64,000 bases of DNA from positions 25,221 through 89,220 of IMG/VR virus record IMGVR_UViG_3300032038_000044. One strand, written 5' to 3'. This document shows positions 578 through 15,322 of this stretch, piece by piece. The notes beneath the pieces are model-generated. The model did no database searches. It saw only the letters and a program-made list of their open reading frames with translations, and was not told where the DNA came from. The translations under genes and the position numbers were made by a program. Every line of letters begins with the position of its first letter. Position 1 is the stretch's first letter. Source of the DNA: a virus (Duplodnaviria; Caudoviricetes).

Positions 578-1495
578 TTATTCTCCTAATATAATATTCT
601 TTGCTAACTTCATTGTAGTTGAACCACAAAACTTACCAAAATTTGGTATCATGGCTACAATTTCTGGCTCTTCCTTTAGACAGTCATTGTAAAGTCTGTG
701 CGGAAGGTCCCTAGCCACGATTGACATATCCTCAGGCGTCAATTCCGCAGGATAAACACCCTCGTCAATAGCCTTGCGAATATTCTTTTCTACTCTTACT
801 CTTGTTACAATAGTCTCAGTGAGCTTCTGAAGTCTTTCCTTTTCCGCCAATGCCTCAAGGTCAATTACCTTAGTCTTCATAGTCTCCTTAAAGTCATCGT
901 TGACAATCTTTAGGTATTTAGGCAGACGAATATTACCATCATTAAGCTTTGTCTGATTCTTAACAACGATACCCTCCTGTCTATCACCGTACATTGGTGA
1001 GTTCATGAAAGTCATACAATGCTCCCAAGAGATGAACTGACCTTCATAAAGCACATGAATATACTCAAGACCTGCCTTATGTGCAAAAATCTTGACTGAC
1101 TTCTGCGGAAGCCACTCTTCCTTCATTGTATCATAAATGTCATAGACATACCATCTCTTATAGAACTCCTTGTTGTAAACAATCTTGTTCTTGTTACCCC
1201 ACTCACCAAACACAATAAAGTTAGGATGCTTCTTAAACATATGTACTGCTGGCTCTGGTAATGTCATGATGAAATCATAGAATCCACCTAAGGTATTAGA
1301 AGGGTTAAGGTCCTGCTTTCTACTGCAAGCATGCATAGCCCCCGCTTCCGCATCCCAATAAGCTGATGCGTTAGAACCATCCCACTTCTCTGTAATCTGG
1401 ATTTCATCACCCACTTCAAAAGCACCGGTATTAGTCTTAACTAAACCGTTATCTCCTGACATTCTAATATGTTCAATATCAATAAAATGCTTCAT
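578..1495 (-). CDS. RNA ligase, Rnl2-like nucleotidyltransferase
   Basis: Motif I TEKWDGSN, IVFGEW, YVYDI, QEGIVVK, YLKIVNDDFKE; C-terminal helical domain; own promoter at about 1524-1555. Confidence 0.85.
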   Translation of the reverse strand: MKHFIDIEHIRMSGDNGLVKTNTGAFEVGDEIQITEKWDGSNASAYWDAEAGAMHACSRKQDLNPSNTLGGFYDFIMTLPEPAVHMFKKHPNFIVFGEWGNKNKIVYNKEFYKRWYVYDIYDTMKEEWLPQKSVKIFAHKAGLEYIHVLYEGQFISWEHCMTFMNSPMYGDRQEGIVVKNQTKLNDGNIRLPKYLKIVNDDFKETMKTKVIDLEALAEKERLQKLTETIVTRVRVEKNIRKAIDEGVYPAELTPEDMSIVARDLPHRLYNDCLKEEPEIVAMIPNFGKFCGSTTMKLAKNIILGE

Positions 1496-3528: not shown

Positions 3529-4241
3529 TCGCGCCCTTTCTCCTTATAAAAATCTGGGTCTATTTTGTTTATTTCAGAAACAATTTCTCTAGCTGTTCCC
3601 TTTTCGCATCCCCATTGTGTATGTAATGCAGTTACAGGGTCTAAATAAAAATGAATACCATTAGTACAAACATTAAATCTATTAGAATCCCATAGATTTG
3701 CATATACATTATGTCCTACTGTATATTCTATATTTTGTCCTCTACTATGGAAACAATTGTGATAAATAGAATCATATTTTCCTATACCATATGTTTTATA
3801 CTGCGATATTCTATAAATTGATATTACTTTAGCCTTTTCCGCCCTGCATTTCTCACAAACTCCATTATTTGCTCTTGGTGTTTCTGCATCAATCTGTAAC
3901 TTAACTAAAAAGTCTAAATCATGAAACTCATTATAAAGTATTTTATATCCGTATATAACTTCATTCTGAGGACATTTTGATGGAATAAGTTTATCTAAAT
4001 ATTCCTTTACTTCAGGATATTCTATTATTGTATCAAAGTCAATATGAATATCTTTTTTACAGCTTGATAAATCAAGATTAAAAGTACAGTTAGTGTATAT
4101 ATTGCCAGTTAAATAAACAAATGAAGGTTTATTTATTTCAAAATGACAATTATTAAAAATACAACATGTTATATCTACTCCTTCACCTGGTCTTGTAAGA
4201 GTTATTATTTCATCTTTAAATTCACAACCACAATAATTCAT
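3525..4241 (-). CDS. pentapeptide-like N-terminus plus DUF5758-like domain (start revised to MNYCG)
   Basis: KCRAEKAKVISI...YTVG...WDSNRFNVCTNGIHFY matches the family from memory; GGAGGTGAG RBS before 4241. Confidence 0.6.
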   Translation of the reverse strand: MNYCGCEFKDEIITLTRPGEGVDITCCIFNNCHFEINKPSFVYLTGNIYTNCTFNLDLSSCKKDIHIDFDTIIEYPEVKEYLDKLIPSKCPQNEVIYGYKILYNEFHDLDFLVKLQIDAETPRANNGVCEKCRAEKAKVISIYRISQYKTYGIGKYDSIYHNCFHSRGQNIEYTVGHNVYANLWDSNRFNVCTNGIHFYLDPVTALHTQWGCEKGTAREIVSEINKIDPDFYKEKGRE

Positions 4242-10710: not shown

Positions 10711-11976
10711 TTAGAGTTCATTAATATGAAGATTGATGATTTCATCAATAGCCTCAATCATAGGTACATCTACTGAACTAATATTTACATTGTTTCTATA
10801 TCTAGCTTCAACAGTAGCACCCTGTTCCTTGTTGAAACGGCAAGTTAAATATGATTTATCTGGACTTCCAATCTTTCGTATAAAATAGATATAATTTCTA
10901 CCCTCAAGAATAGAGCCATCATAGTAATAACCAACACAGTTGTTCTGCTGACGACCCTCATCAATCTTTTCAGCTTGGTTCTGTGGTACAATTACTATAT
11001 ACCCATCAAGCTTATGAGTATTAATGAAGTTAAGCTTCTGTAACTGAGCGCTCAGTTCTTTATTTCTAAGATTTTCAAGTAAGTTTTCAGCGTTTCTAAT
11101 ATTTACCCCTAGCGTTCTATTTGTATCTAAAGTGAACTCAAGTTCTTCTTGTCGTAAATCATCTACAACATCTATGAGGTCTCTAAGAAGCTGACTTATA
11201 CCATTTAATCTCTCAAAACATATTGTATTTTCAATTACTTTTAATAATTGACTAGGTGGTAATATATCAACCATATTTTTATAATTGTTTCTTATATCAA
11301 GACACTGAAAGATAAAACCTCTCTCTTTAGCTGAATAGTTAGAATAATCTCTATCCACCTGACACCTAGAAATAGCTATGCGCCAATTTCTACCATGTAT
11401 ATCTAAATACCTAGAAAAATTTTTAGGCATAACTTTTGGGTCAAAATTGTTACTTTTTAGTTCTTCTATAATAGATTTAACTTCTGTAAAGCTAGTTGCA
11501 TAATTGAAAATCCATTCATAATCAAATAATTTAATAATATCATCAAAAGAATTAAAACCACAATCAACAGTCATTCTGTAATTACCAAAGTCATTTTCTT
11601 TTGTGATAAAATCATAAGAAAACCGTCTAATCATGTGCATATTTTGAGCTTCAAAATTTAATATGTTCTTATTTTTATAAAATGACCTATAAGGATTAAC
11701 TATAGCTATATCTTTAACTATCTCATGTAATGACTTCTTATTTGGGTCATGGTCAACTATATATTTAATAGGAGACGGATATTGTACCTTATATTCAACC
11801 TGAAGTCTCTCAAGACTTGCCTTTATTGCTGGAGCATTAACACTACTATGGTCTAACTGTTTACAACAACTCATAGAAAATAATGCAACATCAGTTGTAG
11901 TAAAATCATTTACTCTTGAAATGATTACCTTTAACATATTATCCAATTCTTTCTTTTCATAATAATTTAATCCCAT
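10711..11976 (-). CDS. PcfJ-like domain protein
   Basis: C-terminal IIVPQNQAEKIDEGRQQNNCVGYY...IYFIRK...LTC pattern. Confidence 0.7.
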   Translation of the reverse strand: MGLNYYEKKELDNMLKVIISRVNDFTTTDVALFSMSCCKQLDHSSVNAPAIKASLERLQVEYKVQYPSPIKYIVDHDPNKKSLHEIVKDIAIVNPYRSFYKNKNILNFEAQNMHMIRRFSYDFITKENDFGNYRMTVDCGFNSFDDIIKLFDYEWIFNYATSFTEVKSIIEELKSNNFDPKVMPKNFSRYLDIHGRNWRIAISRCQVDRDYSNYSAKERGFIFQCLDIRNNYKNMVDILPPSQLLKVIENTICFERLNGISQLLRDLIDVVDDLRQEELEFTLDTNRTLGVNIRNAENLLENLRNKELSAQLQKLNFINTHKLDGYIVIVPQNQAEKIDEGRQQNNCVGYYYDGSILEGRNYIYFIRKIGSPDKSYLTCRFNKEQGATVEARYRNNVNISSVDVPMIEAIDEIINLHINEL

Positions 11977-12037
11977 TTTTTATTACCTATTTCCTTTCTT
12001 TTCTTGTAAAGATTTCTTACCTCTTCCTTATGTATTC

Positions 12038-12190
12038 ATTATACTACCTCTACCCTCTAATGTCAAACAAAAAAATGCACAAATTGCGGGAAAACTTTTT
12101 GACATTTTTTATGCAAATTTCCTCTTGACAAAACCGCCTAGGTGTGGTACAATGTTGAATATTGGTCGCGACGCGCGCTAGCGACCAACG
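12038..12190. repeat. cassette unit F: divergent promoters, boxes 12076-12115, hairpin 12162-12188
   Basis: TTGACA 12125, TACAAT 12148. Confidence 0.85.
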
Positions 12191-12199
12191 CAATAAAAA

Positions 12200-12500
12200 A
12201 TAGCCACTATCCACCTATTGCAATCAGTGAATAATGACTATTAGTGCGTGGTAGCCAACCACTAGTATGCTCTTCAGCGCTATTAACCTATAACTAGGGC
12301 AGGTTTCGTCACGCAAGAAACCTACAAACTGCCTCAGTGACTTTAGCGAACACTGCTCCGCTGCCCCTATCTTATCCAAGTTGGCTAACGCTTGGATAAC
12401 TGCTACTGTCAAGAAGTGTGAGGATTCGGACCTCTAATCCCATATATGACACCCCTAGTTTGTAAGGGGTAGGTAGTCATTCCTACCCCTAGCACCTATG
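12200..12500 (-). ncRNA. candidate structured ncRNA/3' UTR containing a tRNA-like minihelix (12412-12456) and a predicted kissing loop
   Basis: 300 nt with no credible ORF, at least 5 hairpins, T-loop GAGG-TCCGAAT-CCTC stacked on an 8-bp stem. Confidence 0.6.
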
Positions 12501-12504
12501 AAGA

Positions 12505-12837
12505 TTACTCTGCGAGAGAGTAAGCTGACTTCTTAGCATCCTTTACGACCTTACCAGCCTTAATAAGTCTACCAAGAGAAGCTGTTACCTTTGGAACTGA
12601 GCCAAATGCTTCGACATCCTTTGCAAAGATATTTGTTGGTGACATAGGCTCTGTACCAAGTACGGCAAGTACCTTTTCATCAATATTAGCCTGAGCCTCA
12701 GCTACCTTTTCAGACTTACCTGAATACTTCTTCACGATAGACTCCTTGAGTGCCTCAAGACGCTCCTTAACCTCTGCATCATCAACAACCTCAATTGCTT
12801 TCTCAAGTGCTACTTTGTACGAAATTTTCTTTTCCAT
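12505..12837 (-). CDS. small basic protein with C-terminal winged-helix-like domain (paralogue 1)
   Basis: MSPTNIF...VPKVTASLGRLIKAGKVVK wHTH-like pattern; preceded by stacked promoters. Confidence 0.7.
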   Translation of the reverse strand: MEKKISYKVALEKAIEVVDDAEVKERLEALKESIVKKYSGKSEKVAEAQANIDEKVLAVLGTEPMSPTNIFAKDVEAFGSVPKVTASLGRLIKAGKVVKDAKKSAYSLAE

Positions 12838-14855: not shown

Positions 14856-14924
14856 AAACCATCAAAGCCCCCTACATTGCGTAGGGGGCTCTGAAAGGAA
14901 GGTATAAGGTTTTTCGTGTTAGAA

Positions 14925-14983: not shown

Positions 14984-15322
14984 TTAGACAAGCTTGTAGC
15001 CTGTCTTTTTACCACTGATAGCAACCTTTTCAGCCTTGCCATCTGCAACAAGTCTTGTAAGTGATGCAGTAACCTTTGGTACTGAACCAAGTGCCTCAGC
15101 ATCCTTTGCGAAGATTGCAGTTGCTGACTGTGGCTCATCAGTAAGGACTGCAAGAACTGCCTCATCAACTGCTGACTGAGCCTGAGCGACCTTTTCTGAC
15201 TTTCCTGAATACTTCTTGACGATTGATTCCTTGAGAGCCTCTAATCTCTCCCTTACTTCCCCGTCTGCTACTTCCTCGATTGCCTTTTCAAGTGCTACCT
15301 TGTAACTCATTTTCTTCTCCAT
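14984..15322 (-). CDS. small basic winged-helix-like protein (paralogue 2)
   Basis: Clearly homologous to 12505-12837 (MEKK.SYKVALEKAIE, SVPKVTASL). Confidence 0.7.
   Translation of the reverse strand: MEKKMSYKVALEKAIEEVADGEVRERLEALKESIVKKYSGKSEKVAQAQSAVDEAVLAVLTDEPQSATAIFAKDAEALGSVPKVTASLTRLVADGKAEKVAISGKKTGYKLV

Follow-up and report, generated by a model that had tools for sequence, protein, structure and literature searches.

In the MALAT1/mascRNA and murine gammaherpesvirus 68 tRNA-miRNA units, both of eukaryotic nuclear systems, one transcript yields two functional RNAs because RNase P and/or RNase Z cleaves it at a tRNA-like fold. In plant mitochondria, tRNA-like structures known as t-elements mark the ends of mRNAs; these are non-decoding tRNA-shaped folds for which cleavage by RNase P and/or RNase Z, and thereby the definition of transcript ends, has been proposed (Forner et al. 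2007, PMC1920247). Among phages, the orphan RNAs ROOL (RF03087) and GOLLD (RF02032) contain many helices, pseudoknots, and kissing loops, are associated with tRNAs or tRNA-like elements, and form RNA-only cages (bioRxiv 10.1101/2024.12.08.627333). The pRNA of phage phi29 builds its functional form through the pairing of complementary loops and keeps its fold as its sequence drifts (PMC2582624), and the tRNA-like domain of tmRNA and YrlA, some of them phage encoded, carry a mimic of the acceptor/T arm and a D-loop-like strand within a larger RNA (Chen et al. 2014, PMC4201824). Here, we analyze a noncoding RNA (ncRNA) module on the minus strand of a large, uncultured Caudoviricetes phage, at positions 12195-12504 of a stretch of 64,000 nt (hereafter the window) that corresponds to bases 25221-89220 of an 89-kb IMG/VR virus record (IMGVR_UViG_3300032038_000044) estimated to be 61% complete. 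The module is a conserved minus-strand RNA with a defined set of helices and a complementarity between two of its loops, and it constitutes a real RNA family that matches no family of Rfam 15.

The module belongs to a known kind of element, structured phage RNAs that include a tRNA-like unit, and its sequence family has no counterpart in Rfam: none of the 4227 families of Rfam 15 matched the window at gathering thresholds, and none matched positions 11900-12700 at E ≤ 10. Like a t-element, its tRNA-like minihelix lies close behind a coding sequence, 48 nt past the stop codon, and it recurs after a paralogous gene and after a GOLLD-like RNA of the same phage; t-elements, however, belong to an organelle rather than a phage, have no further structured domain behind them, and have mapped transcript ends as the ground for their cleavage, whereas cleavage is only predicted here. 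ROOL and GOLLD measure ~580 and ~800 nt, against ~215-310 nt here, and the module appears as the 3' extension of an mRNA in an early-gene cassette rather than in the tRNA island; it has no match to them in sequence or structure, and covariance models of these and other catalogued large RNAs gave no match in the window, ROOL and a GOLLD-like RNA both being detected elsewhere in the genome. The pRNA of phi29 is of similar size and also has complementary loops, but its 5'/3' helix, its three-way junction, and its setting in small protein-primed podoviruses have no counterpart found here, and its loops pair between molecules; the candidates for a conserved 5'/3' helix comprise 3 invariant bp only, and Rfam gave no match to pRNA. 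The remaining parts of tmRNA and YrlA branch off at the position of the anticodon arm, whereas here the minihelix is closed and stands in series with what follows. There is also no tag reading frame, unlike in tmRNA, and, unlike for YrlA, no TROVE/Ro60 gene in the contig; Rfam gave no match to YrlA, and no TROVE domain was found in the 89-kb record (itself ~61% complete). Neither a CCA-adding enzyme nor RtcB was found among the protein families of the record.

A first-pass annotation of this DNA, made from the letters alone, had proposed a tertiary-folded ncRNA of a class that it could not name and had seen no convincing hammerhead or tmRNA core. The Rfam result fits an unnamed class, and the comparative data presented below support a minus-strand fold with a loop-loop contact. 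Both exclusions also stood. With respect to tmRNA, ARAGORN called 0 tRNA or tmRNA genes in the window (24 tRNA genes lie in the rest of the genome), Rfam was negative, the acceptor strands are only 29 nt apart, and no open reading frame (ORF) in the module is conserved across lineages, the 62-aa TTG ORF of the window not being kept in the others, so that we rejected a coding reading. With respect to the hammerhead, a CUGAAGA at 12277-12271 becomes UCGAAGG or CCGAAGG in homologues and belongs to a covarying 3-bp hairpin, the window shows GCAC where GAAA is required, and there is no Rfam match. The minihelix is not a tRNA either, as it has acceptor and T-like stems only and did not match the Rfam tRNA model at E ≤ 10.

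When we rederived the coordinates, all the helices and hairpins listed in the first-pass annotation were found in place on the minus strand. The elements of the module, in transcript order, are the following.

12195-12504, minus strand: whole ncRNA module, from the base after the stop codon of a 110-aa gene to the U-run of the terminator, ~310 nt
12490-12482 with 12473-12465, minus strand: P1, a 9-bp hairpin 8 nt upstream of the minihelix, -16.5 kcal/mol, z -3.7
12456-12412, minus strand: tRNA-like minihelix, built of stacked acceptor-like (8 bp) and T-like (4 bp) stems, the latter with the 7-nt loop UCCGAAU
12399-12372, minus strand: P3, a 9-bp hairpin with the 10-nt loop CGUUAGCCAA, which carries the 5' kiss partner AGCCA (12386-12382)
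12335-12362, minus strand: proposed H-type pseudoknot, S1 plus S2
12362-12357 with 12350-12345, minus strand: S1, AGCGGA/UUCGCU, invariant
12355-12351 with 12339-12335, minus strand: S2, CAGUG/CACUG, 100% paired, 2 of 5 pairs changed on both sides
12323-12317 with 12307-12301, minus strand: P6, a 7-bp hairpin, AGGUUUC/GAAACCU, of a length that varies by lineage
12294-12290 with 12283-12279, minus strand: P7, 5 bp, 100% paired, one double and two one-sided changes
12278-12269, minus strand: P8, 3 bp closing a GAAG loop, one doubly changed pair, U-A (20) or C-G (5)
12262-12248, minus strand: P9, a 5-bp hairpin with the loop UGGCU (12257-12253), the 3' kiss partner
12242-12195, minus strand: intrinsic terminator, a 17-bp A/U- and G·U-rich stem with a 10-nt loop, followed by U6, -19.5 kcal/mol, z -5.5

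The fold rests on homologues collected from the contigs of close relatives of the 110-aa protein in a large protein collection and of their cluster members (loci L002-L013, L235, and L246-L266), to which a motif scan added L097 and L118. A covariance model of 335 positions and 74 pairs (R1) aligned 34 copies, 26 of them distinct, all from metagenome contigs and representing only about five lineages (window-type, L002, L005-type, L235, and L249). Across the 26 distinct sequences, in an alignment fitted to this same model, 98.2% of the cells were paired and 16 pairs, or 104 cells, were changed on both sides, versus 34.3 ± 4.0 in shuffles (0/500) and 9-15 with slid partners; a smaller set of 13 sequences agreed with this pairing result. 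G·U cells numbered 163 and A·C cells 1, which assigns the fold to the minus-strand RNA rather than to the DNA or the opposite strand. The folding energy of a 321-nt stretch is also low, with a minimum free energy z-score of -3.3 and 0/100 shuffles folding as well. Together, these data support P1, the acceptor/T-arm minihelix, P3, CAGUG/CACUG, P6, three small hairpins, and the terminator, and the module as a whole counts ten conserved helices and many invariant unpaired bases.

The helices differ in what has been conserved. Between the window and L005, identity amounts to 74% in the gene, 98% in the minihelix, 39% in P3, 89% in the pseudoknot, 52% in P6, and 81% in P7-P9, so that pairing survives where sequence diverges, in P3 and P6, and the minihelix is instead held at the sequence level. 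In P3, 6 of 8 aligned pairs are changed on both sides, and in P6, 4 of 10. P1 is 100% paired, with one pair changed on both sides (A-U in 18, G-C in 8), and the terminator is likewise 100% paired, with 7 pairs that vary on one side only. Its stem is too poor in G-C pairs to be recognized by a simple terminator scan, which therefore missed it.

The first-pass annotation had further pointed to an exact complementarity between the P3 and P9 loops of the window, and this complementarity was retained in every copy collected, as AGCCA/UGGCU in the window-type and as AACC(G/A)/UGGUU in nearly all remaining copies. The loop pairs of the individual lineages are the following.

Window-type, minus strand: P3 loop AGCCA with P9 loop UGGCU
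L005-type, minus strand: P3 loop AACCG with P9 loop UGGUU
L002, minus strand: P3 loop AACCA with P9 loop UGGUU
L249, minus strand: P3 loop UAACCA with P9 loop UGGUUA, six Watson-Crick pairs
L235, minus strand: P3 loop UAACC with P9 loop GGUUA

The kiss columns are 98% paired, the central pair being A-U in 17 and G-C in 8 distinct sequences and the flanking pairs alternating between wobble and Watson-Crick (U·G/U-A and G·U/A-U). Matching P3 and P9 loop types occur in 25/25 distinct copies that have both hairpins, and most copies share the core AACC/GGUU, which we take to be also the wild-type loop pair of pRNA. In a blind scan of 2850 pairs of unpaired 5-column windows, three were complementary in all sequences, namely, the kiss and two overlapping AGCGGA/UUCGCU windows. 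Compensation by itself says less: the kiss has one compensatory pair, and a separate blind search returned 351 column pairs that looked just as compensatory, so that with so few lineages the lone compensatory pair is weak and not significant by itself. Taken together, the comparisons support a conserved, predicted loop-loop contact. An alternative partner for the P9 loop, namely, the P6 3' strand, offers 7 bp in L005-type copies; this pairing was rejected, as window-type and L002 copies cannot form it.

Between the two kissing hairpins, S1 encloses the 5' strand of S2, the first loop being 1 nt and the third, AAAGU, A-rich. Since S1 never varies, covariation cannot test it, and we infer the pseudoknot; if both stems form, S1 and S2 would make a compact H-type pseudoknot. 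The one helix that we rejected among those of the first-pass annotation is GGGCAG/CUGCCC, which had been proposed to close a multibranch domain. It is complementary at 6/6 positions in the window sequence and at 3-5/6 in other lineages, it overlaps the better-supported P6 and S1, and a window-type copy (L248) is altered in its 3' strand. The kiss, and not this helix, would close the domain. Three further pairings were set aside: a long-range helix from RNAalifold, of the linker with the U-tail of the terminator, and a 3-bp AGU/ACU closing helix, both invariant and implausible, and a second small pseudoknot between the P7 loop and the strand before P7, which shows a single G-C to A-U switch, a pattern of which the blind search for compensation gives 351 examples.

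The minihelix has a 14-nt D-loop-like linker with an invariant GGG, no anticodon arm, and no encoded CCA. Its acceptor stem is 99.5% paired and varies on one side only (G·U/A-U and U-A/U·G), and the element keeps 98% identity across lineages whose genes share 74%. In the 89-kb record, a descriptor scan returned 3 such minihelices, against 0.07 expected. The other two are as follows.

14978-14925, minus strand: second minihelix, after a paralogous winged helix-turn-helix (wHTH) gene
G000:C1:219-174, minus strand, outside the window (L267): third minihelix, a 7-8-bp acceptor-like stem and a 6-bp T-like stem with the loop UCCGACU

The third minihelix starts 6 nt past the match to the GOLLD-like RNA, has a stem and loop nearly as in the module, and is preceded by a hairpin, which gives the same hairpin-minihelix order as at 12490-12412. 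Behind a 50%-identical homologue of the gene, L238 (505-600) carries a hairpin together with a complete but degenerate cloverleaf, whose anticodon-like loop reads CAU; ARAGORN did not call this cloverleaf, and in its T-stem a compensatory U-A replaces G-C. Behind another homologue, L239 has a minihelix of the paralogue type with the same T-loop as that of the paralogue. The cloverleaf of L238 hints that the minihelices descend from a tRNA gene.

Two observations on the minihelices and their surroundings deserve mention in their own right. The T-like loop (12424-12430; columns 77-83 of alignment A7) exists as two haplotypes, UCCGAAU and UUCGAAC, linked at positions 2 and 7, which cannot pair with each other; both occur with both versions of the 3' domain, and the variants UUCGAAU (L249) and UUCAAAC (L008) are also seen. 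Moreover, a pyrimidine-rich motif, ACCUU...CUUUCAG, which resembles the 3' end of 16S rRNA (anti-Shine-Dalgarno), sits right before the terminator downstream of the paralogue-type and GOLLD-side minihelices (14891-14910, minus strand; L239:1937-1958; G000:C1:~78-90).

The same phage encodes other structured RNAs, all outside the window. A full-length ROOL (RF03087; G000:C1:1017-1606, minus strand, L267) scored 261.5 bits (E 2e-59), and a GOLLD-like RNA (RF02032; G000:C1:225-651, minus strand) scored 108.5 bits (E 1.9e-28), below the gathering score of 150. Both lie directly past a tRNA island of 24 tRNA genes called by ARAGORN (G000:C1:1672-7729, minus strand), in which Rfam gave two extra tRNA-like matches (3660-3732 and 3818-3897). 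CCA is encoded in 0/24 of these genes, and the 3' trailer begins with U in 23/24, like the trailers of the minihelices; tRNA genes of this type, devoid of CCA and with trailers starting in U, are substrates of the kind handled by RNase Z. With its three minihelices behind two wHTH genes and beside the GOLLD-like RNA, this phage thus has tRNA mimics devoid of an anticodon arm at the borders of structured RNAs and of two mRNAs for regulators. A 317-aa frame at window positions 935-1408 on the minus strand (G000:C1:26155-26628) matches the Pfam RNA_ligase family (PF09414; 85 bits, E 3e-25), and an RNA ligase in combination with so many tRNA genes suggests that the phage may be able to repair tRNAs.

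As to distribution, the RNA family is narrow, every copy found coming from metagenome contigs that are close relatives of this phage. BLAST against phage and plasmid collections gave no match, scans of IMG/VR with both flanking proteins, with the protein alignment, and with the conserved RNA motif returned nothing beyond the record of the window itself, and model R1 matched neither the 3 genomes reached through the loci nor 151 sampled genomes from the class of a Clostridiales metagenome-assembled genome. A scan for a 17-base motif gave at least 118 matches in the metagenome collection and 103 in the genome collection, where ~140 are expected by chance according to an estimate; nhmmer showed all of the matches but L097 and L118 to be unrelated. 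In all copies found, the module lies behind the same gene family. The identical protein (P0156 or P0161) is nevertheless followed by a window-type 3' domain in some contigs and by an L005-type 3' domain in others (L254, L259, L262, and L246 compared with L255-L258 and L260), and the switch point falls at or just after the conserved minihelix. One protein with two versions of the 3' domain implies that the RNA domain recombines as a unit near the minihelix, and these contigs thus point to modular recombination of the 3' domain.

The immediate neighborhood of the module comprises the following features.

12837-12505, minus strand: 110-aa winged-helix gene, upstream neighbor (ORF list)
11976-10711, minus strand: 421-aa PcfJ-like ORF, downstream neighbor (ORF list)
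13018-12990 and 12918-12890, minus strand: two tandem perfect TTGACA-17-TATAAT promoters (promoter scan, 12/12 each, consensus match only)
12066-12038, minus strand: third perfect promoter, for the PcfJ-like gene (promoter scan)

The promoter scan found no promoter between the 110-aa gene and the RNA module, which argues that the module is a 3' extension of the transcript of that gene; the two are probably cotranscribed from the tandem promoters upstream. The 110-aa protein is predicted by AlphaFold (pLDDT 85) to contain a C-terminal winged helix, its best matches in the PDB being the wHTH domains of IclR, MarR, ArsR, and Zalpha proteins, all weak (E ≥ 5e-3). We rejected the protein as a clue to RNA binding, a generic winged helix being uninformative in this respect. 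A paralogue of the gene, 73% identical, lies at 14984-15322. The gene downstream of the module varies among copies and is PcfJ-like or encodes a 157-aa, 151-aa, 85-aa, or 83-aa product. On the plus strand, at 12125-12188, a conserved TTGACA-17-TACAAT promoter (TATAAT in the L005-type) is aimed into the RNA region and is followed by a 27-nt GC hairpin at 12162-12188; its transcript would be antisense to the terminator and possibly to the RNA.

How these features might work together can be formulated in one scheme, which we favor tentatively and to which we give appreciable but less than even credence: the minihelix would be cut by the RNase P and RNase Z of the host to yield a stable, folded RNA of ~215 nt that acts in trans. 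From 5' to 3', the transcript would consist of P1, the minihelix, a compact domain of ~165 nt, and the intrinsic terminator, the compact domain being made of P3, the H-type pseudoknot, and P6-P9, with its first and last hairpin loops paired. The tRNA maturation enzymes of the host would take the minihelix for a pre-tRNA, with RNase P acting on the 5' side of the minihelix and RNase Z cleaving past the unpaired base behind the acceptor stem. These cuts would split the regulator mRNA, now ending in P1, from an RNA extending from ~12411 to ~12195, in which the kiss would close a compact, nuclease-resistant fold and the terminator hairpin would cap the end. The freed RNA would then act in trans on a partner. 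The comparisons show the conservation of the RNA, its strand, its helices, and the complementarity of its loops, whereas transcription, cleavage, stability, and trans function are inferred. The view of the minihelix as a processing signal is supported by the three minihelices, by their positions at the edges of RNAs and mRNAs, by the elements behind the gene homologues in L238 and L239, by the RNase Z-type trailers of the tRNAs, and by the precedent of the t-elements.

Several results weigh against this scheme. Nothing found here points to a partner or a function, and one lineage (L249, 922-1228) lacks the whole pseudoknot segment (~29 nt) and retains everything else. The minihelix alone is thermodynamically unremarkable (z -0.35), RNAfold favors another inner hairpin over the 4-bp T-stem, and this T-stem is invariant within the family, so that only comparison with the paralogous minihelices and with L238 supports it. 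Many copies have a C at position 2 of the T-like loop, which is unusual for a T-loop, and the two bases that flank the minihelix, one before it and one behind the acceptor stem, can pair; the resulting 8-bp stem could disturb RNase P. Furthermore, the paralogous gene has a minihelix with no long RNA behind it, so that the minihelix cannot serve solely to release this RNA, and the distant wHTH homologues P0010 and P0011 have just a terminator or a hairpin behind the gene.

A different reading of the loop complementarity is that the kiss pairs between molecules, the RNA self-assembling head to tail into dimers, rings, or larger RNA-only particles, as phi29 pRNA does through two interlocking loops and ROOL and GOLLD do through quaternary kissing loops. 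Covariation is blind to the distinction between intra- and intermolecular pairing, and a kissing loop of ROOL that covariation had first suggested to be a tertiary contact turned out to be a quaternary one (bioRxiv 10.1101/2024.12.08.627333). The presence of a full-length ROOL and of a GOLLD-like RNA in the same phage, the base pairing between right-hand and left-hand loops by which phi29 pRNA forms rings (PMC2582624), and the AACC/GGUU core of most copies also speak for such an assembly. Against it, the two loops sit at opposite ends of a single row of helices, an arrangement that suits intramolecular ring closure as well, there is no Rfam match to pRNA, ROOL, or GOLLD and no pRNA-like 5'/3' closing helix or three-way junction, and ~215 nt is far below the size of cage-forming RNAs. 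We consider an intermolecular kiss unlikely, and slightly more doubtful still its extended form, in which a ~215-nt RNA excised at the minihelix would assemble through the P3 and P9 loops into rings or particles and so constitute a third, much smaller "ornate RNA" beside ROOL and the GOLLD-like RNA. If true, head-to-tail assembly of the excised RNA would represent a minimal natural RNA self-assembly system, cut from an mRNA by tRNA-processing enzymes.

The position of the module invites the simpler proposal of a purely cis-acting 3' untranslated region, which would protect the regulator mRNA from 3' exonucleases and insulate the cassette, with nothing excised and no RNA acting in trans. The module lacks its own promoter and is found behind one and the same gene family throughout, the early region is organized in promoter-gene-terminator cassettes according to the promoter scan, and stable hairpins, P1 and the terminator, flank the module, all of which would suit such a role. 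A simple terminator suffices, however, in the other cassettes and in the distant homologues, and ten helices, an invariant S1, a kiss, and invariant unpaired bases exceed what 3' protection needs. Such a role also leaves the 98% conservation of the minihelix unexplained. We judge it to be improbable, to much the same degree as pairing between molecules.

We find it very improbable that the element is a conditional terminator, riboswitch-like or controlled by a protein, in which the state of the kiss would set read-through into the next cassette. P9, with its kiss loop, ends 5 nt before the terminator stem begins, and part of the 3' strand of the terminator recurs as AGUGG within or next to the P9 loop, where it could compete for the 5' strand of the terminator; the downstream gene, on the other hand, has its own perfect promoter and differs in identity among copies, the terminator is long, stable, and nearly invariant, and there is no Rfam riboswitch match. 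Finally, it is hardly credible that the module is a decaying remnant (an old tRNA gene plus a drifting spacer) or a DNA-level signal with no RNA function under selection. In favor of a remnant are a degenerate cloverleaf at the same place in a distant homologue, the narrowness of the family, with few close lineages, and the loss of the pseudoknot in one copy; against it, six helices show compensatory changes, 163 G·U cells to 1 A·C cell exclude a DNA-level palindrome, and the minihelix is more conserved than the neighboring coding sequence.

The module would add a well-defined RNA family, devoid of a model in Rfam 15, to the poorly understood elaborate ncRNAs of phages. Unusual features are its placement at the 3' end of the mRNA of an early regulator rather than in a tRNA island, the serial arrangement of a tRNA-like, putative "cut here" unit and a domain with a pseudoknot and a closing kiss, and its occurrence in a phage that also has ROOL and a GOLLD-like RNA, the latter likewise flanked by a minihelix. 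Natural variants, namely, two loop haplotypes, a pseudoknot deletion, and swapped 3' domains, provide ready-made controls. If the minihelices are indeed cut by RNase P and RNase Z, phages would use a mitochondria-style tRNA punctuation for early transcripts and thereby release structured RNAs.

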